From a virus (lineage: Duplodnaviria; Caudoviricetes): a stretch of 55,998 nucleotides of DNA. How positions within the stretch are numbered: position 1 is the first letter of the stretch; each line of letters begins with the position of its first letter. Below the pieces are notes generated by a model, which saw only the letters and a list, made by a program, of their open reading frames with translations, was not told the origin of the DNA and made no database searches. Made by a program: the position numbers and the translations under genes. The DNA lies in IMG/VR virus record IMGVR_UViG_3300006802_000116, positions 1-55,998 of that record; one strand, 5' to 3'. This document shows, in pieces, positions 3,800 through 44,027 of the stretch.

Positions 3800-4141
3800 G
3801 TAGGGCTCCAGCAGCGCGAGCCATTGCTGGGCACTCCAACAGCGGCCACTGCGGCGATTCAGGGTGCGAGTGGGTGAGCTGATGCCCAGCCGGAGCCCGG
3901 CGGCTTCATGAGGCAGGATGGCGCCGAACGCCAACAGCTCGCTGCGCCGTAGCTGCAGCTCAGCGGCTCCAGCGGGAGGTGTCACAGGGGTAGCGGAAGC
4001 GGCCGCCATGGCTGTAGCGGATGTGGAAGGGGATGGCATTGTCGCGGCAGGTAGTGATGATGTCGCGCAGTGTCTGCCCGTCGCGCAGTTCGAAGCTGGC
4101 GTCGGCGATGGGGTGATCGGGGTAGTGGATTTGCATGGCAA

Positions 4142-4342
4142 TCAGGAGTCAGCGAGCAGTTGCTCGACTTCGTGGCGCAACCAGTCGGCGGTTTCACCGG
4201 GATCGAGGTCGAGGCCCTGAGCGCCGCGCTGTTCGATGTGATCGGCGATCAGGGAGAGGATGGCCGCCAGCTGGTCCGTACTGGGAGCTCGATAGGAGAG
4301 CTGCGGCTGGAGGGCTAGCTCCCGCCAGAGGGGGCTGGTCAT
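4142..4342 (-). CDS. Hypothetical protein
   Basis: 66 aa, ATGA-coupled to the upstream gene. Confidence 0.6.
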   Translation of the reverse strand: MTSPLWRELALQPQLSYRAPSTDQLAAILSLIADHIEQRGAQGLDLDPGETADWLRHEVEQLLADS

Positions 4343-4539
4343 GGGCTGCCCTCCAGCTCAGTCGCGACAACAATGGCGCTACGGCGCTCGGAACCGCAAC
4401 TCGGGCAGAAGTTGAAACGATGGCGGGTGCCCTTCAGGTGGGGCATTCGATACGTGCCTTCTGTATCTACGAACCAGTTCGCAGAATCTGCCCAGCTTTC
4501 CCAGGCTTCGCAGCAGGGAGGTGTAGTTTGCTCAGTCAT
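4339..4539 (-). CDS. Small Cys-containing (FNFCPSCG) zinc-ribbon-like protein
   Basis: CC and CPxCG motifs; ends ...ATELEGSP. Confidence 0.6.
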   Translation of the reverse strand: MTEQTTPPCCEAWESWADSANWFVDTEGTYRMPHLKGTRHRFNFCPSCGSERRSAIVVATELEGSP

Positions 4540-4714
4540 TAGAGCCCTCCAGCTCGGCGGCGATGGCTTGAATCTCTTCTAGGTCTTGATTAAACTTGAC
4601 ATAATGTCCGCAGTTGTCGCAATGAAGATCACCAAAGATGGCGTCATTTAGATCAAGGGCTTTGTAGTGACCTTTGCCGCATCGGACGCATGTTGCGCCT
4701 GTATTGTTAGTCAT
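4532..4714 (-). CDS. Small zinc-ribbon protein (CxxC...CxxC)
   Basis: Likely start MTNNTGATCVRCGKG at 4714; HCDNCG; ends IAAELEGSND. Confidence 0.6.
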   Translation of the reverse strand: MTNNTGATCVRCGKGHYKALDLNDAIFGDLHCDNCGHYVKFNQDLEEIQAIAAELEGSND

Positions 4715-5189
4715 TGGCACCCTCCAGCTCGGCGGCGATGGCGAGGAGCGCAGCACGGATAGAGGGCACTGGCTCGCTTGGCCAGATCTTGGATCCTCCA
4801 GGTGTTGTCTCGTATTCCGGCACCACCTGATCCGCAGCAGCACGCAGGGCGGCGGCGATGCTGGGGCAATCACGCAAGTCAGGCACAGCACGGAACGCAT
4901 CCAGCACCGCCTGGGCGGACTTGGTCAGCGTTTCTTCCGCCAAGCTCAGTGGCTTAGGACGCATGATTTGCCTCAGTGCATCACCAGAGGGCGAAACAAT
5001 GAGCTCGTGAGTATACAAAGCGTTTGAGTCCAGCCACTTAGCGTCTTGTTTAAGCTGCTGATCAGCTCCCCAGCGGGCTGCTTGGGTGGCGATGTAACCA
5101 GCGATGCCAAGCTCGTCATCTTCTGGGCTGTCCTCCAGCCACTGCTGCACCAGCTCCGGTGGTGGGGTGATCGGGCGGTTAGTTGTCAT
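4707..5189 (-). CDS. Hypothetical phage protein
   Basis: 160 aa, ITPPPELVQQW...AARWGADQ pattern; ends IAAELEGAND. Confidence 0.65.
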   Translation of the reverse strand: MTTNRPITPPPELVQQWLEDSPEDDELGIAGYIATQAARWGADQQLKQDAKWLDSNALYTHELIVSPSGDALRQIMRPKPLSLAEETLTKSAQAVLDAFRAVPDLRDCPSIAAALRAAADQVVPEYETTPGGSKIWPSEPVPSIRAALLAIAAELEGAND

Positions 5190-5382
5190 CAGTTTTCTCC
5201 AAGTTGGAAGCTGTCAGCTCTGCCCACGCCAACAGGTCACGCACGCGGACCAGTTGCTCGCCGGCGGTGGTGTGTGTTACGCGCCAATGGCAATCGGCGG
5301 TGTCCTTGAGGGCTGCGTGAATGACGGCACGCACCAATTGAGCGCGTACCTGATTGAAGCTATGCCAGTCGTTTTCAGTCAT
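5179..5382 (-). CDS. Hypothetical protein
   Basis: Coupled ORF in the minus-strand array. Confidence 0.55.
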   Translation of the reverse strand: MTENDWHSFNQVRAQLVRAVIHAALKDTADCHWRVTHTTAGEQLVRVRDLLAWAELTASNLEKTDDN

Positions 5383-5677
5383 GGGTTGTATCGGTAGGGA
5401 GAGATGAGCGGCGAACCGTCAGGAGATAGTCCGCAGTGCGCTGCCGATCGGCAGGCGGAATGATGTGGCAGTGGGTGATCTGCGCGCAGCAGAGCAGGCG
5501 TTCGCGCTCGGTAATGAGAGCAGCAAACCGCCGCAGCTTGTCCATCTGCTCGCGCTCCAGCTCGCTCCAGCCCGCAGAGATGTCGTCGGCCGAGTGATCT
5601 GGGTCCACCAGGGACCAGCAGGTGGGCAGGCACAGCCCGGCGGTGAGGGCGGCTTCGAGGATTTGGCGATCAGTCAT
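5375..5677 (-). CDS. Hypothetical protein
   Basis: Coupled ORF in the minus-strand array. Confidence 0.55.
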   Translation of the reverse strand: MTDRQILEAALTAGLCLPTCWSLVDPDHSADDISAGWSELEREQMDKLRRFAALITERERLLCCAQITHCHIIPPADRQRTADYLLTVRRSSLPTDTTHD

Positions 5678-5873
5678 GGCCCCAGCGCGAGAGGATCAGG
5701 CGGGAAGCGATCAGGAAGTCCTGCAGATCGATGTGCGCCTTGGAGAAGACAAGGGAGGCGTGCTGATGGAACACTTCCTCGAGCTGCGTATCGGTCGGCG
5801 CGGAGGGCGCCGGGGTAGTGGATGGGTCAGTCATTGAGGTAAAGAACACCAAGAGCGATGGCCCAGACGACCA

Positions 5874-31456: not shown

Positions 31457-33001
31457 GTGGCTATGCCCGCAAGCTCAGCCGCACTTGCCTTACGCCGTAG
31501 CGCGCAGCTGGCGGCACGGTCGATCGTCAAGGAGGTGGAGGTCGAGATTGAAGAGACCCCGCCTCACATCCTGAAGGCCCGCGAAAGCTTTAGCCATTTC
31601 TGCACGCTGATGGGCAAGCCGCCTGCGCGGCACATGAAGGAATGGCACAAGGCATTTCTGACCGGGCAAAGCAATGACCACCTGCTGGATATAGCCGGCC
31701 CGAACACTTGCTTGCTCGCGAGCAGGGGTAGCGCCAAAAGTACGGTGCTCGGCTTATTGCTGGGTTGGCTGATTGGCCGCCATGCAATGGCCAAGAAGCT
31801 GTTGCGGATTCTCTACGTCTCGTACAACGTTGACGTAGCCCGGAACAAGAGTGCAGCAATCAAGAACCTGATTCTCTCGAAGGAATACCAAGAGGTCTTC
31901 CCGAGTGTTCGCCTGTCCAAGACGAGGACGTCGGATGAGCTATGGAGCATCGACTGGGAGCACGCCGAGGTTGACGTGCGTGGTGAGGATGCCTTCACGA
32001 TCGCCTGCGCTGGCCTGAAGGGCACGATCACCTCCAAGCGAAGTTCGTTGATTGTGGTGGATGACGCGATCAAGAGCGCGGCCTCGATCGCCAATCCAGA
32101 CATTCGCCGCGAGATGGAGACGAACTGGACAAACGTGATCGTGCCGACCATGTTCCAGGGTGCGCGGGCGATCGCCCTGGGCACTCGATTCCACTTCGAC
32201 GATCTGTTCGCGACGATCTTCACGGAGAAGAAGGGCTGGAAGATCATCACCCAGTCCGCCCTGCGCTACGACGATGACGGCCGCCCCCGCTCTTACTGGC
32301 CGGAGATGTGGTCGACCAAGTACCTGCTGAAACTGCAGCAGGACGACCGCATCGCCTTCTCGTACCAGTACCTCAACCAGCCGGTGCGAACGGCAGAGCT
32401 AGGCGTCAGTCCGGAATTATTCGTGCGCGGAGAGGTGCCCGACACCTACGACACGATCGGCGTGGGCATTGACCTCTCGGCCGGCATGAGCGAGCGCAAC
32501 GACTGGACCGTGTTCACGTTGGCTGGCCGCGTCGATGACAAGTGTTACGTGATCGACTACAAGCGGATGCGCTCGATGGGCAATCTCGAGAAAGTCGAGG
32601 CCCTCTGCGAGCTCCTGCTGGAGTGGAATCTGCTAGCGACCAACGACGCAGGCCAATACTTCCCGACGAACTCGCCGGTAGTGATCTGGCCAGAGGTGGT
32701 GGCGTATCAGAAGAGCTTCGAGGGTGACCTAAAGCGGGTGCTGTTCAACGAATGGGGGCTGCACAACCTGTCGGTCTCACCGGTCAAGGGCTTTCGCGGC
32801 GACAAGCTGGCGCGGCTGCGGGGCATCCTGGGTCTATTTCAGGCCAAGAAGATCATCTTCAACAAGTACCGCGACTTCAGCTGCATGATCGATGAGATCA
32901 CCAACTTCGGCCATAGCCCACACGATGACTGTGCCGACAGCTTGAACATCGTGGTGCAGGGCCTGATGCGCCGCGGTGCTGCGCAAGTTGAGTGGACCTA
33001 A
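31457..33001 (+). CDS. terL: Terminase large subunit
   Basis: ASRGSAKST Walker A, LIVVDD Walker B, GTRFHFDDL, GIDLS nuclease, HDDCADS. Confidence 0.93.
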   Translation: MAMPASSAALALRRSAQLAARSIVKEVEVEIEETPPHILKARESFSHFCTLMGKPPARHMKEWHKAFLTGQSNDHLLDIAGPNTCLLASRGSAKSTVLGLLLGWLIGRHAMAKKLLRILYVSYNVDVARNKSAAIKNLILSKEYQEVFPSVRLSKTRTSDELWSIDWEHAEVDVRGEDAFTIACAGLKGTITSKRSSLIVVDDAIKSAASIANPDIRREMETNWTNVIVPTMFQGARAIALGTRFHFDDLFATIFTEKKGWKIITQSALRYDDDGRPRSYWPEMWSTKYLLKLQQDDRIAFSYQYLNQPVRTAELGVSPELFVRGEVPDTYDTIGVGIDLSAGMSERNDWTVFTLAGRVDDKCYVIDYKRMRSMGNLEKVEALCELLLEWNLLATNDAGQYFPTNSPVVIWPEVVAYQKSFEGDLKRVLFNEWGLHNLSVSPVKGFRGDKLARLRGILGLFQAKKIIFNKYRDFSCMIDEITNFGHSPHDDCADSLNIVVQGLMRRGAAQVEWT

Positions 33002-33010
33002 AATCAACCA

Positions 33011-35212
33011 ATGAGCCAGCCTAAATCCGAGCGTTTCCGGCGCATCCTTGAGGCCGCGCGCAAGCGTGACGGCAACAGCGGCACGGACACGATGATCGTG
33101 AACTCGCATCTCGCGCAGATGCGGATGTTCATGCTGCGACAGGGGCTGGAGTTCTACCCGGCTCAGGATACCTTCGGCTTCCGCAAGTCGTTCCTGGCTG
33201 CCCTGATCGAGGAGAACGAGATTGACGCTCGCCTCGAGGGCATCGTCGATGACTTCCTGATTGACGGTAAGGGGCTCTGGTATTTCCGCCCGGTGCGGGA
33301 CACCTACCGGCTGATGTGGTTCAGCCGCGACAACTACCGCGCCTATTACGACGCCGCCGGTCAGCTGGAAGAGGTAGAGCTGATCTACAGCTTCTCGGTG
33401 CGTGACGGCATGGGCGGCATGGCGGCCTTGGCGGGCGATGGTGGTTCGCTGCGCTACGTCAAGCTGCAGGTGCGTCGTGACGTGATCAAGGAGTCGATCA
33501 CCACTGAGAAGCCGAGCTTCGACGTGGGCGTGAGCAGCCTGAACTACGCCCCGACCGGCACCCGTACGCTCACCAACAGCCTGGGCTTCATCCCGGCGGT
33601 CGAGGCGTTCAACAACATGCGCTCGACGGGCATGGATGCCTCGGGCGAGTTTGACTGGCTGAGCGACCACATCGTCACGCACGACGACCTGGTCAAGAAC
33701 ATCCGCGCCAACATCACCTTCTACGGCAACCCGACCCTGGTCTCAAGCCGGCCCAAGCAGGATCTGGTGGAGGCGGGCGATAGCGAGGAGTTCCGCCCGA
33801 CCATCTCGTCCCAGGCCGGCTTCTACGCCGCCAATCGTCCATCGACGCGGGTGAGCAGCCCACTGGGGAGCGGCACGGGTCCTGGCATGCGTGTGCCGCG
33901 GATCATCGCCAACATCGAGGCCACCGACCGCGTTGCTTACATCACGCCCGATGCCGTCTCGGGCGATCAGAACCTCTACGCCCGGCAGTACCGCGAGGAG
34001 CTGCGCAGTGCCCTGGGCGGCGTGGATGAGCTGGGCGTGAGCACCGGCGCGACCGCCTATGAAATCAAGTCGCTCTTCGGGCGAGCGGCAACGACGGCGT
34101 CACGCAAGTGCCGCGGTCTACTGACCTACGGTTTGTGCAAGCTGCTGGCGCTGATTCTCTTCCACGAAGAGCAGATCTTCAAGGATTCGTTTGCAGCGGC
34201 CATCAAGCTCGAAAAGCCGCCGATTCCCCTGCGGGAGGAGTTCCCGGACGCCCAGCAGTTTGAAGACGCGGTGGCGCAATTCCGCGAGGCATTCGCATCC
34301 TTTGAGCAGGCTCTCGACCAGAAGATCGGCGAGGCCGTTCAGAACCGCTCCCTGCCGCCCGGCGTGGTTGGTTTGATCCCCGACGGCGATCGCAAGGTGG
34401 ACTGGCGTTGGCTGGGTCCGGTGTTTGAGGAGTCCACGGAAGATATACTGAACTCAAGCATTGTCGTGCGCAACCTTCAGGAACTCGGCGTCAACAGCAT
34501 CGAGGCCCTGAGGTACCTCTTCCCGGATAAAACCGACGAAGAACGCAGCTCGATGCTCAGTGGCTACCCATTCCGGATGGCGCAGGCCACACAACAAAGC
34601 ATTGGCACCTTCCTGACGCTGATCCAAAACATGCGTCAGATCCCGCATCCACAGGCTCCGGACCTGCCCCTGTTGGCGGACCCCAAACTCGATTTGACGC
34701 CCTACGTCTATCGAGCCCTTGATTTCCTTAAGCGAGAACTGACCTATGCAGGACAGTACAACGATGGCGACGGCAGTGGCGACCCCGCAGCCCTCGATCC
34801 CATCCAGCGTGGCCGCGCCGACCGTGGCCTCCCCGCAGCAGACAGCGGCCCAAGCTTCGTACCCGACGGCCCAGGCCTATACACCGGAGGCGCCGGTTTC
34901 GGCACCCCAGGCCAACCCATGGCAGGCGGCGTACCAGGGGCTCCTCGCCAGTCTGAGCGGGACGCAACCCTCCCAGCCCCAGGCGTACTCCTCGCCGCAG
35001 ATCCCACAGGCGGCCCCTATCCCGGCGGCCTACCCGCAGGCAGCAGTGAGCTACCAGGCGGCTCCATCCGTTACGGCGCCGCTGACCTCGCTGTACCCAC
35101 AAACGCAGGCCTATTCCCAGGCGACTCCGGCACAGGCTCCGAGCTACAGCAGCGCGCCGAGCGCAGCCGCGAGCGACGAGTATCTCCAAAGCGTCAGCAA
35201 CGAAAGCCTTGA
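33011..35212 (+). CDS. Portal protein
   Basis: Follows TerL; large protein; DWRWLGPVFEE-like and NSIVVRNLQELG segments; low-complexity C-terminal extension. Confidence 0.75.
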   Translation: MSQPKSERFRRILEAARKRDGNSGTDTMIVNSHLAQMRMFMLRQGLEFYPAQDTFGFRKSFLAALIEENEIDARLEGIVDDFLIDGKGLWYFRPVRDTYRLMWFSRDNYRAYYDAAGQLEEVELIYSFSVRDGMGGMAALAGDGGSLRYVKLQVRRDVIKESITTEKPSFDVGVSSLNYAPTGTRTLTNSLGFIPAVEAFNNMRSTGMDASGEFDWLSDHIVTHDDLVKNIRANITFYGNPTLVSSRPKQDLVEAGDSEEFRPTISSQAGFYAANRPSTRVSSPLGSGTGPGMRVPRIIANIEATDRVAYITPDAVSGDQNLYARQYREELRSALGGVDELGVSTGATAYEIKSLFGRAATTASRKCRGLLTYGLCKLLALILFHEEQIFKDSFAAAIKLEKPPIPLREEFPDAQQFEDAVAQFREAFASFEQALDQKIGEAVQNRSLPPGVVGLIPDGDRKVDWRWLGPVFEESTEDILNSSIVVRNLQELGVNSIEALRYLFPDKTDEERSSMLSGYPFRMAQATQQSIGTFLTLIQNMRQIPHPQAPDLPLLADPKLDLTPYVYRALDFLKRELTYAGQYNDGDGSGDPAALDPIQRGRADRGLPAADSGPSFVPDGPGLYTGGAGFGTPGQPMAGGVPGAPRQSERDATLPAPGVLLAADPTGGPYPGGLPAGSSELPGGSIRYGAADLAVPTNAGLFPGDSGTGSELQQRAERSRERRVSPKRQQRKP

Positions 35213-35726
35213 GGTCCTGCAGCACTTCGGTGCAGAAGCTCCGGCACTGCTGAACCGCTACGCCTGTGTCGTCGAGGATGCCCTGCTGGCTCAGGCCCGT
35301 CAGACGGCCGAGACGATGCAGCAGCTGCAAACCCTGCAGGGACAGCTGGGCCAGTCGCACGGTGTCATCGCCGCCGCCGCTGAGGACAATGCCGCGTATC
35401 ACACGCTGCTGACCAACCCGGACCTGCTGGCTGATTACGTCAACGAGTTCTACGGCCCGAACGGTCCCTACCCGACCGAGACCTCGCAGGACCGCCTGGC
35501 TGCAGAGGTGGCCGCCAACGAGCGCGTCATGCCCGCAGCAGCTCCGGCCTACCAGCGCCCGCAAATGCCGATGCCCTCTCCTGAAGTGCAGGCCTCCTCG
35601 GGTGGCGATGACTTCTGGTCCGTGTTCTCGCAGATCAGTGATCGCAATCCCGCCGCCGCCTGGCAGATCCTGTCGCAGGCGACCCCCGAGGCCCTGCGCT
35701 CCAAGGTGCTGGTCTCCGAGGGCTGA
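34746..35726 (+). CDS. Capsid scaffolding protein (putative)
   Basis: P/Q/A-rich N-terminus, coiled coil, located between portal and capsid; overlaps the portal 3' end. Confidence 0.6.
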   Translation: MQDSTTMATAVATPQPSIPSSVAAPTVASPQQTAAQASYPTAQAYTPEAPVSAPQANPWQAAYQGLLASLSGTQPSQPQAYSSPQIPQAAPIPAAYPQAAVSYQAAPSVTAPLTSLYPQTQAYSQATPAQAPSYSSAPSAAASDEYLQSVSNESLEVLQHFGAEAPALLNRYACVVEDALLAQARQTAETMQQLQTLQGQLGQSHGVIAAAAEDNAAYHTLLTNPDLLADYVNEFYGPNGPYPTETSQDRLAAEVAANERVMPAAAPAYQRPQMPMPSPEVQASSGGDDFWSVFSQISDRNPAAAWQILSQATPEALRSKVLVSEG

Positions 35727-35765
35727 TTTCGTCGTGTCACGCCCCGCTGCGGCGGGGTCTTCCCT

Positions 35766-36095
35766 ATGAACCTCCCTCGTATTAACCCCGACGCACTGGG
35801 CATGAACCAGGCTTCGGGTTCTCCGTCTGCTGAGCAGCTGCGGCAGTCCATGCAGCAGCTGGCCTCCAAGCAGCAGGCCATGCAAGTGCCCGCCCAGACG
35901 CAGGCAATTGCTGGCCTGCAACAGGCGGCTACCCAGCAAATGGCGGAGGTCAACACCCGTCAGCAGCTGGCTGAGCAGGTCCTGCAAAACGCCAAGCTCA
36001 AACTGATGGAGCGCACGGGTCCAATGCCTGGAATGGGTGCAATTGCGGCTCATCAGGATCCCCGCGCACTGCTTGCCGCCATCGGGATGGGTTAG
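35766..36095 (+). CDS. Gln-rich hypothetical protein
   Basis: 109 aa. Confidence 0.55.
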   Translation: MNLPRINPDALGMNQASGSPSAEQLRQSMQQLASKQQAMQVPAQTQAIAGLQQAATQQMAEVNTRQQLAEQVLQNAKLKLMERTGPMPGMGAIAAHQDPRALLAAIGMG

Positions 36096-36135
36096 ATCCG
36101 ATCTCGTTAGATTAGGTCTACTGCGGACAACGTGA

Positions 36136-36429
36136 ATGCGATTGGCCGGTAGCCCCGAGGTTTACGATGCCCTGGCTCGGCAGTACGTCGGTCAGGGCAT
36201 TCCTCGTGTCGCGGCTGATCATCTCGCCGCAGAGGTGCTCACCGATGGCGATGCCGTCGATACGCGCACGGACACCTTTTTCCGTCTCTACGAGCTATTG
36301 CAGTCCAAGGGCTACAGCGAAAATGCTGCTCAGCATCTGGCCGTAGAAATGATGGAAGGCCGTGAACCCATGGCCGCTAGTACCCGCCGCTTTGCCGGAA
36401 TTTATGGCGACGCATCCGCAGACGCTTGA
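36136..36429 (+). CDS. Hypothetical protein with internal duplication (AADHLAAE/AAQHLAVE)
   Basis: 97 aa, downstream of TAGATT. Confidence 0.6.
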   Translation: MRLAGSPEVYDALARQYVGQGIPRVAADHLAAEVLTDGDAVDTRTDTFFRLYELLQSKGYSENAAQHLAVEMMEGREPMAASTRRFAGIYGDASADA

Positions 36430-37570
36430 TCGTGCCTGTGAGCTGATCGAGCGTTTCGAGGGGATCGAGACCGAGGCGTATCTTGACCCGGTTGGCGTAC
36501 CGACAATCTGTGCGGGTGTCACGCGCTACCCGAGCGGGGCGCCGGTACGCATGGGAGACATCTGTGATCCACGCATCTGCCGCGCACATTTGGAGTCGCT
36601 GCTGAAGAGGGAGTACCTCCCCGCTGTCTGCTGCATCCCGGGCTGGGGCGAGCTTGGCCGCGAACGTCAGGCCGTGCTGCTCAGCTTCGCGTGGAACATG
36701 GGCGCACGGTTCTATGGCGCGGCCGGCTTTGAGACGATCACGCGCGTATTGCGTGATGGCGCCAAGCGGCCCGAGATCTATGGCCAGATGGCCCAGGCCC
36801 TGGCGTTGTACGTCAATGCCGGCGGTCGCCCCCTGCAGGGTCTGATCGAGCGCCGCAAGCAGGAAGGTGCCATTTGGAATTCAGAAGACAACGGAACCAT
36901 GAAATTCATCGCCAATCAGGACACACTGCTCAAGAAGGCTGCCATCGACAGCCACTACCTCTCGGATGCGGGCAAGCGGCCCTACGCAAAAGGCGAGGTG
37001 TTAGCGGTGACCAAGCTGGAGGAGATCCCGGCTGATAGCCACGCCTGGCTGACGCTGAATGGCAGTGGCGAGCGCTGGGCTGCGTACCTGCCCCACTGGC
37101 GAGAGGAACAGGCCAAGCCAGCGCCGGCCGCAGCCAAGGGAATCGACTGGAGCGATTTTGCCTGCCCCGTCGGTAAGTACATCACCGTTGGCGAGGTCCT
37201 GCAGTACGACGCCCGCAGAAAGCCGGTGCCAGGCAGTGAAGTTGAAAAGGCGATCATTGGCGTCTGCCGCGAGTTTGATGCGATCCGCGAGGCCTGGAGC
37301 GGCCCTCTTGGGGTCACCAGCGGATACCGCCCTGAACCGATCAATAGCCAGGTCGGCGGTGTGCCCAACAGCTATCACGTCAAGGGGATGGCGCTGGACA
37401 TCTATCCGATCGGCGAGTCGCTGCAGAAGTTCCACGAATGGCTAGTGCAGCGATGGAGCGGCGGTTATGGCGATGGCCGCCCGAAGGGCTTCATCCACAT
37501 CGATACGCGCAATGGCGGCAAATTCAGCGCCCGTCCAGGCGTGCGTCCCTCGGCGGTCTGGGATTACTGA
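36404..37570 (+). CDS. Endolysin: GH24 lysozyme plus peptidase M15 domain
   Basis: FEG...AYLDPVGVPTI, LLSFAWNMG, GLIERRKQE; C-terminal TSGYRP..N..VGG..SYHVKGMALDI...FIHID. Confidence 0.88.
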   Translation: MATHPQTLDRACELIERFEGIETEAYLDPVGVPTICAGVTRYPSGAPVRMGDICDPRICRAHLESLLKREYLPAVCCIPGWGELGRERQAVLLSFAWNMGARFYGAAGFETITRVLRDGAKRPEIYGQMAQALALYVNAGGRPLQGLIERRKQEGAIWNSEDNGTMKFIANQDTLLKKAAIDSHYLSDAGKRPYAKGEVLAVTKLEEIPADSHAWLTLNGSGERWAAYLPHWREEQAKPAPAAAKGIDWSDFACPVGKYITVGEVLQYDARRKPVPGSEVEKAIIGVCREFDAIREAWSGPLGVTSGYRPEPINSQVGGVPNSYHVKGMALDIYPIGESLQKFHEWLVQRWSGGYGDGRPKGFIHIDTRNGGKFSARPGVRPSAVWDY

Positions 37571-37599
37571 TCTCGTTAGACTTGCTTTATCTGGCGTAA

Positions 37600-38061
37600 T
37601 TGCGGCGCGCTGTTATGGCGGTCATCGACAAGGTTAATCGCAGAGGCTCCTCTGGCAAGCGCGTACTCACCGGCCCTGGCGAGCTGGTGGGCCCGAAGCC
37701 TGCTACGGCGGCTGTCTTCAACTCCGTCACCCGCATCAACGGTCCGGTCGATTTCTACGAGATCACCGACGGCTCCGGTACCGGGATCGGTAACTACACC
37801 GTGACGATCCGCCCCTTCAGCGAGAACGGCTTTGCCGGCACCTTGAACGGAGTCGGTGACGTAGCGCTGATCAAGCAGACCAACGGCGTCACGACTCCCA
37901 CGGCGGCTGCAACCTTGCTAGGCAAGAAGCGTCCCCGCAATAGCAAGGCATCTGTTGCCTTGGGCCCCTTCACGATGGGCACCAACGACCGCTTGTTTGT
38001 GGCGATTGAGCGCAATGCCGTTTCGACTCTGAAATATCAGATCGAAATCGACAAGGCCTGA
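37600..38061 (+). CDS. Putative structural protein
   Basis: Beta-rich 153-aa ORF. Confidence 0.55.
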   Translation: MRRAVMAVIDKVNRRGSSGKRVLTGPGELVGPKPATAAVFNSVTRINGPVDFYEITDGSGTGIGNYTVTIRPFSENGFAGTLNGVGDVALIKQTNGVTTPTAAATLLGKKRPRNSKASVALGPFTMGTNDRLFVAIERNAVSTLKYQIEIDKA

Positions 38062-38195
38062 TCAGCGCCCCTGACCGCGACTCTTCTTGCGTCCGTGGCT
38101 GGCTTTGCTACTGCGGACGCTTTGCCCTTGACGGGTCTTTTTGACCACCGGATCCTTGTGAATTGCGGCGGTCGGTGATTTCTTGGGCTTGGCCA

Positions 38196-38612
38196 TCAGA
38201 CGAGGCGGATGGCGAGTGCGCCTGAGTTGAACTGCACGGTGTCACCTGCAACCACATCGACTGAGGTGGTCAACGAACCCGATGCCAGGAAGTTGCCGGC
38301 AGTTACCGCATCCCAGACGCCAAAGTGCGTCACGGTCGCACCAGCCGAGGCGTTGGTCGTGATCTGAACAGAGCTGCCGTTGGTGATCTGGAAGCCACCA
38401 CCGGAGGCCGCGCCGACCACGCTGAAGGTCGAGGTCGTGATGGCGGTGCGGTTGGCACTGCCTGTAATTGTGGTCTGTACGTTATTCGCAGTCCCTGCGG
38501 TGCCGGGGTCGCCGGAATGCAGGCTCACGTAGACAGTCGACAGCGCAGTCGGGAAGGTCGTCCCTTTGATCCAGACGAGAATCTTGTCGGCAAGATACTG
38601 GGAAAACGCCAT
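38196..38612 (-). CDS. Phage tail/fibre-associated small beta protein
   Basis: FSQYL...VYVSLHSGDPG...VTHFGVWDAVTAGNFL..G.L...V.AGD pattern common in phage tail proteins; TAGAAT upstream on the minus strand. Confidence 0.7.
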   Translation of the reverse strand: MAFSQYLADKILVWIKGTTFPTALSTVYVSLHSGDPGTAGTANNVQTTITGSANRTAITTSTFSVVGAASGGGFQITNGSSVQITTNASAGATVTHFGVWDAVTAGNFLASGSLTTSVDVVAGDTVQFNSGALAIRLV

Positions 38613-38672
38613 GTCCCGTCCGGACTACCTATGGGCAACAGTTGGATTCTAGGAAGCCAGATCGAGTGCCGA

Positions 38673-39503
38673 TCAGTAGCCGTAGCCGCCGCCGCCTGAC
38701 GCTGTTCGTGTCAGCGTAGCCGTGCTGGTATTGGCTCCAGATGCAGTGCCATTCAGGCGCCAGTTCATCATCAGGCGCCCAGAGGGAAGCCCCTGGCCAA
38801 GAGCAACGCCGCGCATGATGGCCAGCGTGACCAGAGTGATAGGCGCAGAGCCTGTGGCCGAAGTACTGGTAGAGAGGTTCTTGATGGTGACCGGCCGCAC
38901 CAGGGTGCCGCTGGCTGGCGCAGTACCAAGCGCGGGACCTGCAACCTTGCTGAGCGGGAAGCGGCCGGAGGGAGTAAACGTGCCACCTCCAGTGCCCGCA
39001 AGCAGCGCGTAGCGACCCGCGTAAACCGTGATGGCGTACGGCAGAGGTTGCCACTGATCGCAGGCCACCGTGACGTAATACACGCCTGCGGGGAGCCGAG
39101 CATAGGACTCGTCAACATCCGTGTTGTGGATGTCGTTGAGGAAGGCGTAACCGTCCTCCGTGAGTGGCAGTGGGCGCCGATCGCCGTCGAGGACGCCAAC
39201 GCGGACTAGGCGGTCTGTCGTTGCGCCGGTCGCACGCTTGCGGACCCGCAGCTCCAGGTCTCGAGCCAGTTCGACTTTGACGTAGATCGTGTTGGTGCCG
39301 CTGTGGCCGCCGACTGTTCCCTCAACATCGGCAATCAGGATTTCGGTGCGGCCGAGGTCCTTGGCTTTGGTGACGGCGTTGTACTGAACGTAATACGGCC
39401 TGAGGAAGGATGACGATGTGACATCACTGCCGCCGTAACTGGTGCGTATGGCTTCGTACGTCTCTGACTGCGATGCTGTCGTCATAGGTCGTACACCAGG
39501 CAC
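38673..39503 (-). CDS. Putative structural protein
   Basis: 276 aa, LPAGVYYVTV beta-sandwich motif, Thr/Gly-rich tail. Confidence 0.55.
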   Translation of the reverse strand: MPGVRPMTTASQSETYEAIRTSYGGSDVTSSSFLRPYYVQYNAVTKAKDLGRTEILIADVEGTVGGHSGTNTIYVKVELARDLELRVRKRATGATTDRLVRVGVLDGDRRPLPLTEDGYAFLNDIHNTDVDESYARLPAGVYYVTVACDQWQPLPYAITVYAGRYALLAGTGGGTFTPSGRFPLSKVAGPALGTAPASGTLVRPVTIKNLSTSTSATGSAPITLVTLAIMRGVALGQGLPSGRLMMNWRLNGTASGANTSTATLTRTASGGGGYGY

Positions 39504-39646
39504 TCTGGCGCTGATGGATTGTCATCGCAGAAATCCAGGAACTTACGCCTGAGACCCGAGTCTTCGCAGACATTGGACTCCCTCTGCCGGGCAGGTTGCG
39601 CTGCTCCGTCGGGCTGATCATCCACCGGTAGCGCGCGACCCGACAT
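39482..39646 (-). CDS. cp12: CP12-like protein (C-terminal domain only)
   Basis: FCDDNPSAPECLVYD is the CP12 C-terminal Cys-pair motif; no AWD.VEEL core; likely start at 39646. Confidence 0.7.
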   Translation of the reverse strand: MSGRALPVDDQPDGAAQPARQRESNVCEDSGLRRKFLDFCDDNPSAPECLVYDL

Positions 39647-39825
39647 ATAATCCCCGGGTATATGGCGCCATGCTAAAGGAATAGGCGGCGACTTCCGCAA
39701 AACCAGGCGCCGCCGCACGCTGATCAGACGCACGGCGGATCACTTTCCAGTCCGGGGAAACGGCAAAAATCCGGACTCCTGGGAGTAAGGCCCCTGACGC
39801 CGTTCTTCTTCGGGGCATCTCTACG

Positions 39826-40416
39826 CTAGCGACGGCGTGATGGCAGCACATAAAGCGATGGCGTTCGGTGCGGCGGCAAGTACGGGCGCAGCCAATTCTT
39901 CACTTTGGACGTCTCTTCGATCGGGAATGAGATTGTTGATGCCGGTCCCTCGACTTCTCGGTTGTCGATCGGAATCCCCTGCGCCTCAAGCCAGCGGCAT
40001 ACGACATCGCGGTCATCTTTAAGACGGCGATGCTCGATGTGCAGCCCCTTGCTCCGCTCGCAGCCACCCTGGGTCCATAGGGCGGCGACTAGGTGGCGAG
40101 CGCCAATCTCCATGGCCTCCGCGCTCAGGTGGCGGCAGTCGCGTGGGTAGAGCAGCTCATACACCCGGTAAAGCTCTGGACTATGAAAGCGCAGGCGATG
40201 AACGTCGTAGAAGCTCTCCCCAGGCACGATGTCATACACCAGATCCAAAGGGCCGTCATGCGCTGAACGAAGCCGCCGACCGATGTAGCGCAGATAGGTT
40301 CGATCGCGCTCGCAGAGGCGAATCTCAAGCCATGGCCGCTTCTTCGCGCCCTTCAGTGCAAGCGTCCCGTAAACGGCGCTGTAGCTCAGTGCGAGCGCTA
40401 CGAAATGCGCTGACAT
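39826..40416 (-). CDS. Degenerate free-standing LAGLIDADG-like protein
   Basis: RFHSPELYRVYELLYP...HLS.E.ME...AALWTQGG resembles the I-SceI-type fold; acidic catalytic residues absent. Confidence 0.55.
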   Translation of the reverse strand: MSAHFVALALSYSAVYGTLALKGAKKRPWLEIRLCERDRTYLRYIGRRLRSAHDGPLDLVYDIVPGESFYDVHRLRFHSPELYRVYELLYPRDCRHLSAEAMEIGARHLVAALWTQGGCERSKGLHIEHRRLKDDRDVVCRWLEAQGIPIDNREVEGPASTISFPIEETSKVKNWLRPYLPPHRTPSLYVLPSRRR

Positions 40417-41017
40417 CCCAGATGCCCTCTTGGAATAGGTGCTGACGAGTGATCGGTGCGTACGGTTTCAGGGCCTGGCGGATCTTGCTGCATTGCTCAG
40501 CAGGGAACGCCAGCCTTGGCCGCACAAGGGCCAAGCTGACCTCGGATCGAGCCCCGGTCAGCATCACTAGCCAGTCGCGTACTAACTCGGCCTCCTGCTG
40601 ACTGCCCCCGACCCGGGCGAGTTGTGCGCTGCCGTCTTTGCTCAGCCGAGCCCCCTCCGACCAGAGCCACGCCGCCGCCTGCGCCCCCAGCATCTCAAGC
40701 GCGGTCGACGTGATAGACCGCTGCCGGCCCGGGTAGAGCAGGTTGTAGATCGGGAACAACTTGGCCGATGACACCCGAAAGCGCAGCGCCAGGGTGCGCT
40801 TGCCGTTGTCCCGCAACGTGCACCCGTAGGGGACAATTTCCGCCTTGGTCGGCAGGAATTGGCGGAATTCGGCGACCTTCTCCTCCAGGAACGCCGACTC
40901 CGAGACCCCCGCTGTCAGCGTCAACTGGACAAAACCGCCGCCTGGACTGCGATATGGGACGAGGTTGCCATCAGCAAGGAGCAGGCCAAGCAGTCCGCGG
41001 ACGTCTGCTGGGTCCAA
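40325..41017 (-). CDS. Free-standing LAGLIDADG homing endonuclease-like protein
   Basis: GLLGLLLADGNL first motif; FRVSSAKLFPIYNLLYP...ITSTALEML...AAWLWSEG second motif. Confidence 0.72.
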   Translation of the reverse strand: MDPADVRGLLGLLLADGNLVPYRSPGGGFVQLTLTAGVSESAFLEEKVAEFRQFLPTKAEIVPYGCTLRDNGKRTLALRFRVSSAKLFPIYNLLYPGRQRSITSTALEMLGAQAAAWLWSEGARLSKDGSAQLARVGGSQQEAELVRDWLVMLTGARSEVSLALVRPRLAFPAEQCSKIRQALKPYAPITRQHLFQEGIWDVSAFRSARTELQRRLRDACTEGREEAAMA

Positions 41018-41110
41018 ATTTGTACCCTATAAAACTGCACTATAGTAAGGCGCAGAGGGCAGCTCGCCTGCTCTCTCGCTCGCCTTACCCTCTTCGGAGC
41101 ATTTGATCCC

Positions 41111-44027
41111 ATGTGGATTGACAATGACTTCCCGAAGCTGTTAGGTGCCGAGCTGTACCGGCCTCACCCGAGTTATATCGTGGAGATGGCTGTTGAGCCT
41201 GTCGTAGTACACGACTTTGCAAAACAGCCGGGGCAGACTGTACAGCTTGACCGTTAATTGACTGGTTAGCGGTCATTAAATCCCGTGAATTCAGGGAACC
41301 CCTCCTAAGCTTTAATCGGCAGTAGCCGAGAACCTCGACAAGGAAAGCCGGAATATCGGCAGCATCTTTTATGCATCTCGGCTCTGCCTGGATGTTGGGG
41401 AATCCTGAGCCAAGCCGCCTGGGAACAGGTGGAAGGTGCAACGACTAGGTCATGGAGTCCAGGACGGACGGTAAAGACCCACGAGCGCGGGACGGTCGCA
41501 CGGCCGAAGAGATAGTCTGACCTGCATCAATGGAAAAGATGCAGAACCATCGGATAAAGAGCCGATGGGGTAACAATGTGTACCGCTTCTGGGGAGCACC
41601 GGGCACCAAGGACAGCCGTGAACGCACGGCTGATCAAACCCTTGGCACCGCCTCTTCTCGCAGTATTGTCAAGGACAAGGTTCTTGTATCCCTTAAGGAA
41701 TACACGGGCCCCGCAGATCCTACCGATACTGCTGCACCGAGCACTTTCAAGATTGCTCGCGAAACCCTGCTTACCGCCCAGCGTCTTCTGCTGGATACCG
41801 GTAACCTGAACGTCTTCCATCAATCGATTGGAAGTCTAACTCTGCTTGATGACTCGGCCGAAAGGCTAGTGGTCGCCTAGGCGGAAACGCTTAGGGCAAT
41901 ACGGGGTGAATTGCTGGGAGCCCTTTCCGATCATGCCAGCGATCGGAGGAGGGTCAGGAGCTACAACGCAGCCCGGAAGGGCAATCGTGAACGCCTGAAA
42001 ATCCTGATACCGCATGGGTTATCAGCAGCCAAGCCAGACCACAATCTGGAAGGTTCAACGACTAGGTCCCGAGAGGCAACTCGGTAACGGACCCACGAGC
42101 GCCCCGCACCTGTACCTTGTTAACTGAAGAAGATTCTGTACTTTCGTTCAAGACGAAAGACCCCCTCCGTCGTGCCTTCGTAAAGAATGCGAGCCAAGGC
42201 AATGGCGTTGTCTGCATACCAACGCAAGACGTAGGTATTGCGGTCGCGACCCAGGGACGTTGCTCGCGGGAGGACTGAATCAGCCCACGCTTTGCAGCCG
42301 AGAGCGAAATGCTCACTGGCTGTAGTGATCTGGGCTGCCAATGCTCCACACGAGCGCCGCCCCACGGAACCGTCGCCATCGAAGACCCCCCTGACGTAGT
42401 GACTGACAAACTCACTCGGCAGATCCGGCCACTCGAGGGTTCGAGACTTCCGGGGCGTGACACCATGCCGGATCAAGTCTGCTGCCATTGCTGGACTAGT
42501 GAATTTCACCTGCAGCATCGGCGACCCTTTTCGGGTTCGCAGAGGCACGCCAGGGAAGCCCACGCATTCGGCATATTGCTCTAGAGCTTGGCGATCTCGC
42601 TCGTGGAGGGCAAAGCCGACTCCTCGAGGTACGTTGTTCTCGGTCACGATCCAGCCATCGGCGGATAGGAAGCCGAGCCAGTACACCTTCTGGGGCGCGT
42701 CAAGCTCCCCGAAGAAGTCCTCGTGGACCTCGCGGCGGTAACTCACGGCTCGACGGGCTCCGGGCTTTCGCTCATACGCATCGTCGTACTTGCGGCGTCC
42801 GTGTTTCTGAGCGAAAGATCGCACACCGGCCGCCTTCCGATGGTGGGTAGCAGCAGTCCGGGACAGCCCGTACAGCTCTCCAATCTCCTTATCGGAGAGC
42901 ACGTCGGTCAAGCCGTCAAGCGCCTCGCGCGAAAGGGCATTTAGAGGGATCTTCAACAAGACAAGAATGGTGAAGATATAGTCTAACCTTGCTCGATGAC
43001 AAAGAGCAAGCGTGCGGATAAAGAGCCGCGCGGCCCTTTGGGGCACTGGTGACCGTCGCTGGCGCGACCGTGTATTCGCCGATGAGCTGTTCAAAGCTGA
43101 AGCCAATGGCGCAGCTGACAGCACCAAGGGTGGTTACTACTACCCGCTGAAAAAGGCAAAGGCCGCTTCTGCGCCTTTCCTGACCTACGCAGCCGGTGAA
43201 TCTGCCAAGTTTGATGTCAAGACCGACCTCCTCGAGGTGGTCAAGGACATGCGGAAGCGTAACGTGCCTGGAACATGGGCCTGTACGGCGTGAGTCGTAC
43301 AGCAAACAGGGTGAATTGCTGGAACCCCTCCACTACACGGGGAATCAGCAGCCAAGCCAGACCACAATCTGGAAGGTTCAACGACTAGGTCCCGAGAGGT
43401 AACTCAGTAATGGACCCACGAGTGCCCTGCTACTCCATCGAGTAGATGAGATAGTCTGACCTCGCAGGATGGCAAACTGCGAGAACCGAGGGATAAAGAA
43501 CCCTCGGGGTAACAAAAGTGACGTTCGCTGACGGCTACTACCGCTGCATCGCGGATCCTACCGCGATGATGCACCTGCGCCAGAACGATGCGTTCCGTGA
43601 GATCGCTCGTTACGCTGGCAACGGCATGGTGAACCCCATGCAGCCCGAGTTGGCTCCTAACGCCAACTTCTTCCGTGGCATGGGTCCCGCCTATGGCCAG
43701 GCCGGCTTTGTTGCTGGTCAGCCCGTGATGCCGTCTGGCTTTTTATTTGAGGGCGTCCGCTGGTTCGAGAGCACCAACCTGCCCGAGAAGAGCCTGCAGG
43801 TGACCATCACCGACGCGTCGATCACCTCGACCGTCACCACTGCTGCTCCGATGCTGTTCTTCGGTCCTCAGGCCGTGGGCGTGGGCATCGGCGGCAACAA
43901 CGCTCAGATCCTGCTGAACAACAACGACGATTTCAGTCGTTTCATCATCATGATCTGGTCGCTTTTCGCCGGTTTCGAGATCCTGAACAAGGACTTCGTG
44001 ACCGTCGCTTACTCCTTCGTTTACTGA
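41111..44027 (+). CDS. Major capsid protein, 4 exons: 41111-41254, 41581-41854, 43052-43269, 43521-44027 (380 aa spliced)
   Basis: Exons total 1143 nt in one frame: MWIDNDFPKLLG...QPGQTVQLDR|YRFW...LLDD(Y)RRWRDRVF...KRNVP|TFADGYY...FEGVRWFESTN...AYSFVY. Confidence 0.88.
41255..41580 (+). ncRNA. Group I intron 1 in the capsid gene (no ORF)
   Basis: Exon ends in U, P1 gaccgU/Gcggtc wobble, P4 gaattcagg/cctgag, R acgactag, S aagagatagtc, terminal G. Confidence 0.9.
41855..43051 (+). mobile_element. Group I intron 2 in the capsid gene, carrying a homing endonuclease gene
   Basis: P1 gacU/Ggtc, P aattgctg, Q atcagcag, R acgactag, S aagatatagtc, terminal G at 43051. Confidence 0.9.
42120..42959 (-). 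CDS. Intron-encoded double-motif LAGLIDADG endonuclease, antisense to the intron
   Basis: YWLGFLSADG and YVRGVFDGDGSV motifs; N-terminal HTH-like SDKEIGELYGLS; probable TTG start at 42959 or 42956. Confidence 0.85.
   Translation of the reverse strand: MLKIPLNALSREALDGLTDVLSDKEIGELYGLSRTAATHHRKAAGVRSFAQKHGRRKYDDAYERKPGARRAVSYRREVHEDFFGELDAPQKVYWLGFLSADGWIVTENNVPRGVGFALHERDRQALEQYAECVGFPGVPLRTRKGSPMLQVKFTSPAMAADLIRHGVTPRKSRTLEWPDLPSEFVSHYVRGVFDGDGSVGRRSCGALAAQITTASEHFALGCKAWADSVLPRATSLGRDRNTYVLRWYADNAIALARILYEGTTEGVFRLERKYRIFFS
43270..43520 (+). ncRNA. Group I intron 3 in the capsid gene (no ORF)
   Basis: P1 gccU/Gggc, P aattgctg, Q aatcagcag, R acgactag, S gagatagtc, terminal G at 43520. Confidence 0.9.

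Follow-up and report, generated by a model that had tools for sequence, protein, structure and literature searches.

Three group I introns in the major capsid gene of a likely S-EIV1-like cyanophage, and variable introns in the same gene of its relatives

Can a phage afford to have the gene for its major capsid protein interrupted three times, and what are the interruptions? The question is raised by positions 41111-44027 of IMG/VR virus record IMGVR_UViG_3300006802_000116, a tailed-phage (Caudoviricetes) genome fragment of 56 kb (55998 bases), about 65% complete, that was analysed over its whole length and is called the window here. A preliminary description of this DNA had proposed that the locus is a major capsid gene split by three group I introns. 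Taking the reading as a whole, we consider it highly probable that the window comes from an S-EIV1-like freshwater cyanophage whose capsid gene carries three self-splicing introns of the IA type, the second of them mobile. The anatomy of the gene, the intron boundaries, the covariation, the identity of the capsid protein, the selection acting on exons and endonuclease, and the polymorphism of intron presence and absence are matters of observation and are set out below. The gene is laid out as follows, with insertion sites given as nucleotides (nt) of the joined coding sequence (CDS).

41111-41254, plus strand: capsid exon 1, amino acids 1-48; last base U41254; 83% amino-acid identity to the Synechococcus phage S-EIVl; contiguous with exon 2 in intronless homologues.
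41255-41580, plus strand: intron 1, 326 nt, no open reading frame (ORF), CDS site nt 144; its first codon is an in-frame TAA; last base G41580.
41581-41854, plus strand: capsid exon 2, amino acids 49-139 and the first base of codon 140; last base U41854; 80% amino-acid identity to S-EIVl.
41855-43051, plus strand: intron 2, 1197 nt, CDS site nt 418, phase 1; 5' part of the ribozyme at about 41855-42119 and 3' part at about 42960-43051; last base G43051.
43052-43269, plus strand: capsid exon 3, from the last two bases of codon 140 to amino acid 212; last base U43269.
43270-43520, plus strand: intron 3, 251 nt, no ORF, CDS site nt 636; last base G43520.
43521-44027, plus strand: capsid exon 4, amino acids 213-380 and the stop codon; 61% identity to S-EIVl (tblastn).

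Joining the four exons gives 1143 nt, that is 380 codons and a stop, with intron phases of 0, 1 and 0 and the junction peptides LDR/YRF, LDD-Y-RRW and NVP/TFA (slashes mark junctions here and below). S-EIVl (KJ410740) is the sole GenBank phage with a relative, and at least 599 IMG/VR stretches encode capsid relatives, 80 of which were fetched with their flanks (705 kb) and make up the loci examined here. Further relatives were drawn from junction-pattern scans of IMG/VR, and five larger relative records, four of them 96-100% complete, were also scanned. The joined protein aligns with the uninterrupted 383-amino-acid ORF of S-EIVl with 264/384 identities (69%) and zero gaps at the junctions, and a single high-scoring segment pair spans all three sites in 62 of the 80 loci, the best being L006 at about 98% amino-acid identity. 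The nucleotide junctions of L006 (GACCGC/TATCGC, GACGATT/ACCGTC and GTGCCC/ACCTTT) likewise agree with the exon ends of the window. Colinearity with capsid homologues had been named beforehand as a refuting test of the proposal, and the alignment proves gapless at the junctions in both S-EIVl and L006. The continuous 380-amino-acid ORF predicted on removal of 41255-41580, 41855-43051 and 43270-43520 is exact at these coordinates, and the phase 1 junction of intron 2 restores a TAC codon (T/AC), as had also been stated.

The identity of the product was examined by profile searches and structure prediction. Exon 4 alone matches the C-terminal part of phrog_1357, 'major head protein' (E 7.4e-12, positions 207-344 of a 356-position profile), and the intact L006 protein matches the same family over residues 34-377 (E 2.6e-20). 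Pfam gave no match for the capsid exons or for the intact L006 homologue, and a sequence search of the PDB with the intact L006 protein gave none either. An AlphaFold model of the L006 protein, the 98%-identical intact homologue of the window protein, was built from a 27-sequence alignment (25-91% identity to the query) and reached a predicted local distance difference test score (pLDDT) of 80.9 and a predicted template modelling score (pTM) of 0.80. Foldseek comparison of this model with the PDB returned 363 matches at E<=0.001, all listed ones being phage capsid proteins of the HK97 fold; the top three were those of cyanopodophage Pan3 (9vye_A, 4.3e-13), cyanophage P-SCSP1u and Ralstonia phage GP4. 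Upstream of the capsid gene come the terminase and portal genes, ordered as they are in S-EIVl. The phrog_1357 family, the Foldseek result and the terminase/portal synteny agree with the original assignment to a major capsid gene, and the product of the split gene is a major capsid protein of the HK97 fold.

The S-EIVl counterpart, at 60859-62010 of KJ410740 (positions 3851-5002 of locus L001), is itself wrongly annotated in GenBank. The true capsid ORF is an uninterrupted plus-strand frame of 383 amino acids with a GTG start, and the stretch is annotated as a minus-strand 'hypothetical protein' (AHV82227) together with the truncated plus-strand AHV82228.

We then asked what the insertions are. 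The exon base before each of them is a T (41254, 41854 and 43269), and the last base of each is a G (41580, 43051 and 43520). Across the whole window, the Rfam group I family RF00028 (gathering score 50 bits) gives matches at the gathering threshold only at 41245-41544, in intron 1, and 43260-43483, in intron 3, each with 56.8 bits and a window-wide E of 8e-12. These two are the only matches in the window to any Rfam family at gathering thresholds. Intron 2 matches at 41858-42243 with 38.2 bits (E 1.7e-7 regionally, 3.1e-6 window-wide), below the gathering score, and beyond the three introns there is no RF00028 match at E<=1 anywhere in the 55998 bases. Our own nhmmer profile, built from 14 related introns, found only the same three introns across the window, with E 4.8e-49 for intron 1 and 8.7e-62 for intron 3; intron 2 appears as two halves, at 41849-42143 (E 9e-38) and 42966-43032 (E 9e-9). 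Group I matches at the three sites are far beyond chance. The Rfam alignments show P1 with the splice-site U.G pair, P3, P4, P5, P6, P8 and P9, as well as the R and S elements (GGUKCAACGACUAG and GAGAUAGUCUGACC). Two elements of intron 1 were placed from these alignments.

41249-41274, plus strand: P1 of intron 1, GACCGUUAA paired with UUAGCGGUC; the wobble U41254.G41269 marks the 5' splice site, and 41269-41274 form the internal guide sequence.
41307-41395, plus strand: P5 of intron 1 extended by a long, optional hairpin; the Rfam alignment treats it as an insertion, and variant contigs have 5 letters in its place.

The hairpin-less joint, 41306/41396, was found in DNA run X3 (depth 58) and in RNA run X15; the runs compared with the window were RNA runs X15 and X17 and DNA runs X3 and X7, all as assembled contigs. 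For introns 2 and 3 the U.G pair of P1 was identified by eye, in GACU with GGUC and GCCU with GGGC, respectively. Thus, the earlier claims that an exon U enters a U-G wobble in P1 of all three introns, that each intron ends in G and that core elements are carried all hold, the core elements being intact. The proposed check against a group I covariance model succeeded for introns 1 and 3, above 50 bits, and fell short for intron 2, whose low score is explained by an antisense endonuclease gene filling its P8 loop.

Covariation was analysed with RNAalifold in 14 ORF-less introns from seven insertion sites. Double compensatory changes keep 36 of the 46 predicted pairs (covariation term -11.39 kcal/mol), which provides independent evidence of a shared ribozyme fold under selection. 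The compensated pairs span P3, P4, P5, P6, P6a, P7.1 with its inner hairpin, P8, P9 and a distal hairpin of the P9 region, with helix names assigned from helix order. The P7 strands, GACUA and UAGUC, are invariant among the 14 aligned introns, so that P7 contributes no covariation information. Between P7 and P3' the introns have a long insertion, at the place taken in subgroup IA by the P7.1/P7.2 hairpins, and blastn finds the intron cores to resemble intron regions of Bacillus and Enterococcus phages; judged from this extension and this likeness, the introns are assigned to subgroup IA, probably IA2. In line with the covariance model, the boundary rules and the colinearity of the joined protein with uninterrupted homologues, the three insertions are genuine group I introns, as first proposed.

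The frame running on from the 5' splice sites of introns 1, 2 and 3 hits a stop after 0, 8 and 7 codons, respectively. In-frame inteins are thereby ruled out, and no capsid protein can be made from unspliced RNA. The idea that they are assembly chimeras or inteins rather than RNA introns, for which one could cite nothing beyond the metagenomic origin of the contig and the existence of an intein in the lineage (in the S-EIVl terminase), runs up against these stops, the covariance-model matches and the same junctions in independent runs and contigs, and its probability is in our view negligible. The window stretch occurs in a second independent sample (0.94 share of sampled words), and among DNA contigs of other runs, intron 1 is found in X3 and X7, intron 2 together with its ORF in X3, and intron 3 in part; the arrangement is therefore not an assembly artefact.

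The group I introns of the window include one that harbours a gene of its own, on the opposite strand.

42120-42959, minus strand: LAGLIDADG homing-endonuclease gene in the P8 loop of intron 2, 840 nt, about 279 amino acids from the likely start TTG 42959; motifs WLGFLSADGW and VFDGDGSV.

This gene lies in a minus-strand open frame of 335 codons (42120-43127), the first 56 codons of which are the reverse complement of the 3' ribozyme core and exon 3. The product of the ORF has E 6.5e-36 against phrog_4645, 'endonuclease', and 27.7 bits against Pfam LAGLIDADG_3, for which the cut-off is 22.5. Its stop codon abuts the P8 stem, and the profile of ORF-less introns resumes at 42966. Just upstream of the ORF, at 43002-42973 of the minus strand, lies a sigma-70-like match, which is a consensus match only. 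A homologous intron with an antisense ORF is found at the same capsid site (418) in L013, and the two endonucleases share 74% of their amino acids (DNA 70% identical), with the motifs FLSADGW and VFDGDGS conserved between them. The ratio of nonsynonymous to synonymous substitution rates (dN/dS) in this comparison is 0.056, which marks the ORF of intron 2 as a working gene. At the level of sequence, this shows a working protein under purifying selection; that it cleaves the intron-less allele is something we infer. Introns 2 and 3 share a 95-nt core stretch that is 91.6% identical.

Two further ORFs with LAGLIDADG-like products lie between the portal gene and the capsid gene; they overlap, are similar to each other and face away from the capsid gene.

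40325-41017, minus strand: LAGLIDADG-like ORF upstream of the capsid gene, 230 amino acids; Pfam LAGLIDADG_2, E 1.8e-6.
39826-40416, minus strand: second LAGLIDADG-like ORF upstream of the capsid gene, 196 amino acids; weak phrog_11023 match (E 0.028).

Syntenic copies of the two (52-64% and 33-48% identity) occur in about 50 related loci, with or without capsid introns (e.g. L006, L007), a stability of position that is unusual among free-standing homing endonucleases. In organelle introns, maturases of the LAGLIDADG family are established, and it may be asked whether the window introns, though genuine, need a protein cofactor for splicing, such as a LAGLIDADG maturase supplied by the intron 2 protein or by the two upstream proteins. 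The stable synteny of the upstream ORFs, unlike the sporadic occurrence of free-standing endonucleases, would fit such a role, and both intron 2 and its ORF-less relative in L098 score under the Rfam gathering cut-off. However, the upstream ORFs stand equally beside intron-free capsid genes and do not track the introns, and introns 1 and 3 have complete cores with strong covariation; we therefore regard dependence on a cofactor as unlikely and retain self-splicing as the preferred reading. A part for the upstream ORFs in collaborative homing, of the kind played by F-CphI beside the S-PM2 psbA intron, was also considered and rejected, since they are syntenic beside intron-free capsid genes too.

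We next consider how the introns are distributed among related capsid genes. The search of the 80 flanked loci with our own profile gave intron matches in 13, all of them on the capsid strand and within or at the very start of the capsid gene; the flanks of the 80 loci gave no match. RF00028 yielded 12 matches in 8 of these loci, 11 of them at >=50 bits, together with 4 matches in 4 of six further loci (all >80 bits) and 21 matches, 14 at >=50 bits, in eight more loci from the junction-pattern scans of IMG/VR. Sites were located by mapping exons against the joined protein and by the rule that the exon ends in U and the intron in G, and 11 distinct insertion sites were mapped in this way, at CDS nt 12, 19, 51, 107, 144, 321, 397, 418, 636, 696 and 849. 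This count excludes a second, 1.5-kb insertion in L098, near nt 849-875, whose boundaries are ambiguous; the 5'-most introns of L024, L058, L059, L062, L085 and L096 were detected at sites that are only approximate (about nt 9-19). All mapped introns (15/15) obey the boundary rule after a 1-nt shift of two site classes within synonymous ambiguity, and all 13 listed ORF-less introns are preceded by an exon T. L089 has the heaviest load, its capsid gene holding five introns that each exceed the gathering score; it is followed by L051 with four, the first cut by the contig end, and by L088 and L090 with three each.

Each of the window introns was also traced by site. Site 144 holds homologues of intron 1 in L051, L088-L090, L094 and the L086 clade, and site 418 holds homologues of intron 2 in L013, L096, L097/G002 and, as an ORF-less form of 373 nt, L098; no other locus with an intron at site 636 was found among the examined loci. 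A short junction pattern for intron 3 matched 89 IMG/VR stretches, none of the 80 listed encoding a capsid protein, and is too short to measure prevalence. The five larger relative records contain RF00028 matches only in the capsid gene (three records) or lack them and have intron-free capsid genes (two records). The relative G002, which is complete with terminal repeats and 98% identical over capsid residues 1-139, has intron 2 with its endonuclease and is without introns 1 and 3. In L094 introns 2 and 3 are absent, intron 1 is present, and a further intron of 970 nt, with a LAGLIDADG ORF on the sense strand, sits at nt 321. In DNA run X7 there is a contig with intron 1 but neither intron 2 nor intron 3, in which an intron resembling intron 3 follows 43732 (nt 849); a contig of DNA run X3 is without intron 3. 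Such variable content among close relatives, found in samples of the same sort, is the pattern expected of mobile introns with gain and loss of endonucleases.

Introns at one site are 86-98% identical to each other, and those at different sites 50-72%. Sites 51 and 144 both end in ACCGU/ and share the guide GCGGU, their introns being 69.5% identical; sites 636 and 849 both read UGCCU/AC with the guide GGGC, and their introns are 70.4% identical. The shared exon match and guide would fit site-hopping by reverse splicing and do not prove it, because any intron must match its own exon.

The orientation of the intron-borne ORFs varies as well. The LAGLIDADG ORF lies on the sense strand in L094 (oriented 4820-5789, 265 amino acids) and in the site-144 intron of L086 (249 amino acids), and on the antisense strand in intron 2 of the window, L013, L096, L097 and the second L098 insertion, so that both orientations coexist in one gene family. 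Within a library of representative proteins at 50% identity, dozens of clusters of 30-200 amino acids match only part of the capsid protein, many of them starting or ending at intron sites (residues 36, 48, 132/133, 138/139, 212/213 and 283/284), and public gene calls thus seem to include many capsid genes split by introns.

Does the interrupted gene still work? Compared with L006, the window exons are 85% identical in nucleotides and 97.6% in amino acids, with a dN/dS of 0.021, and the gene is thus under the selection expected of a working capsid gene. If it were instead a dead gene in a defective or decaying phage, and the insertions decayed introns that no longer splice, one would point to a contig that is only about 65% complete and to the lack of allele-specific spliced RNA among the assembled RNA contigs. 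Yet the exons are strongly conserved and show no frame defect once joined, the core elements and boundary nucleotides are intact, and the same interrupted architecture recurs in several independent samples as well as in G001 and G002, relatives that are 100% complete, which makes this alternative very improbable.

Six RNA runs contain parts of the stretch, and in contigs of RNA run X15 exon 1 is followed directly by exon 2, with the joint precisely where it was predicted. It is here that the observations weighing against a working, self-splicing, mobile arrangement have to be set out. The RNA joint between exons 1 and 2 (GACCGT/TACCGC) is indistinguishable from rare intron-less alleles: of the 62 loci with no interruption at any of the three window sites, 4 have GACCGT/TA at site 144. 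At sites 418 and 636 the X15 RNA joints show synonymous differences; DNA run X7 has an identical site-418 joint, and alleles without an intron at site 636 are found in DNA runs X3 and X7. Because the RNA joints are also seen as DNA or belong to other alleles, we count them neither for nor against splicing. The P10 pairings are short (3 bp by eye in intron 1); intron 2 falls under the Rfam gathering score, and its ORF-less L098 relative also reaches only 41.7 bits; the endonuclease ORF has no ATG, TTG 42959 being a presumed start; and the subgroup call was made from the P7.1/P7.2 extension and blastn.

One X15 RNA contig deserves separate description. Its 552 nt run from 41227 to 41579 and then from 41058 to 41256, with the same 30 nt at both ends, and it is read as a 522-nt cycle in the assembly graph. 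The joint coincides precisely with the last G of intron 1 (41580, with 1 nt of ambiguity) on one side and with leader position 41058/41059 on the other, about 12 nt past a promoter-like TTGTAC-N15-TATAGT at 41020-41046 that was seen by eye and that the consensus scan did not flag. The 41580/41059 joint was not seen in DNA runs X3 and X7. Possible sources are an RNA circle, template switching by reverse transcriptase between a discrete omega G 3' end and the transcript 5' end, or a DNA duplication.

Taken together, it seems reasonable to propose the following course of events, of which actual splicing, the activity and target of the endonuclease and the route of spread are the parts we infer. 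The capsid gene would be transcribed as a precursor with three introns of subgroup IA type, each of which would fold as a P1-P9 ribozyme with a P7.1/P7.2 extension. A guanosine would attack after the exon U of the P1 U.G pair, the freed exon would attack after the terminal intron G, and the four exons would be ligated into a 380-codon mRNA. Only spliced RNA would then yield the capsid protein, as translation of unspliced RNA would stop within 0-8 codons of the 5' splice sites. Intron 2 would be a mobile unit: when relatives co-infect, its LAGLIDADG enzyme presumably cuts those of their capsid alleles that have no intron, and repair of the cut allele would copy intron 2 in. The ORF-less introns 1 and 3 may persist via inheritance, co-conversion or occasional reverse splicing.

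A broader reading, which we offer tentatively and with more doubt than belief, is that the S-EIV1-like capsid gene is the sole arena of an intron arms race. Introns with endonucleases would cut the capsid genes of co-infecting relatives, a form of interference competition, and ORF-less introns would hop by reverse splicing on a 5-nt guide match, giving rise to at least 11 sites and up to five introns per gene; the endonuclease would often be antisense and might have a promoter of its own.

Three introns in one phage gene are not without parallel. The virulent Staphylococcus phage Twort reportedly has three group I introns in one protein gene, orf142, which is like the window in number and differs in the host gene. 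Exon skipping in Twort is named in the title of Landthaler and Shub 1999. A closer parallel in the gene itself is the mycobacteriophage LittleE, whose major capsid gene has an intron, probably group I, with splicing established by RT-PCR (reverse-transcription PCR) and N-terminal sequencing (Pope et al. 2013, PMC3706429). As that article presents it, LittleE resembles the window in having a capsid-gene intron in a tailed phage with a 5' exon ending in U and an intron ending in G, and its intron, like intron 2, has a LAGLIDADG-like ORF on the bottom (antisense) strand; a related ORF-less intron occurs elsewhere (the BAKA tail gene), and presence varies among close relatives. In contrast to LittleE as described there, with one intron and proven splicing, the window has three introns (its relatives up to five), a cyanobacterial host, introns in the capsid gene only, and splicing predicted from sequence. 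[quoted passage not shown]

Among cyanophages, S-PM2 has a psbA group I intron with the free-standing endonuclease F-CphI, and Pf-WMP3 a DNA polymerase IA2 intron encoding I-PfoP3I (PMC6083498, PMC3428280). In these accounts both resemble the window as group I introns in cyanophage protein genes whose homing endonuclease is encoded within the intron or next to it; each occurs singly, in a metabolic or replication gene, and goes with an Endo VII-like or HNH endonuclease, whereas the window has a capsid gene and an antisense LAGLIDADG enzyme. The Jug jumbo gut phages are described as carrying 18.5 introns per genome on average over many genes, with terL and other essential genes split into 2-3 fragments, and 37 of 76 predicted introns in three genomes are supported by metatranscriptome read mapping (PMC12880540). 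Jug introns, on this description, are spread over many genes, whereas all those detected here, in the window, in 5/5 scanned relative records and in the 80 flanked loci, lie in one gene.

Full-text searches of the literature, supplementary files aside (e.g. the intron tables of PMC12880540), gave no report of introns in S-EIV1-like capsid genes and none of a phage capsid gene with three or more introns. The preliminary description had called three introns in such a gene unusual; given LittleE and Tuc2009, this was overstated for a single intron, and it is the intron load that is unusual. Since both the introns and the LAGLIDADG endonuclease are of canonical type and introns in capsid genes were known before, we claim no new mechanism. 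The novelty lies in scale and focus: introns in 13 of 80 loci, 11 mapped sites, up to five introns per gene, restriction to the capsid gene, and polymorphism within populations.

The surrounding genes also differ between the window and S-EIVl. The large terminase of S-EIVl (846 amino acids; L002 24080-26617) contains an intein at residues 202-526 (Pfam Intein_splicing, E 1.4e-11), and that of the window (514 amino acids; 31457-33001) is without one, with a tblastx gap of about 1 kb on the S-EIVl side. The interval from portal to capsid gene measures about 5.9 kb in the window (35212-41110) versus about 1 kb in S-EIVl. Its extra genes include one for a 402-amino-acid fusion of lysozyme and Peptidase_M15 (36362-37570) and two minus-strand ORFs, 38196-38612 and 38673-39503, without family matches.

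Gene callers fragment intron-split capsid genes, and the intron-free gene of S-EIVl is mis-annotated as well; surveys based on capsid genes thus under-count this lineage. The capsid gene, the most abundantly needed of virion genes, has collected introns at no fewer than 11 sites and emerges as a natural hotspot for mobile introns in a widespread lineage of aquatic phages. The lineage allows the gain and loss of introns, the gain and loss of endonucleases and site-hopping to be followed from metagenomes, and with S-EIV1 and its Synechococcus host a culturable model is at hand.

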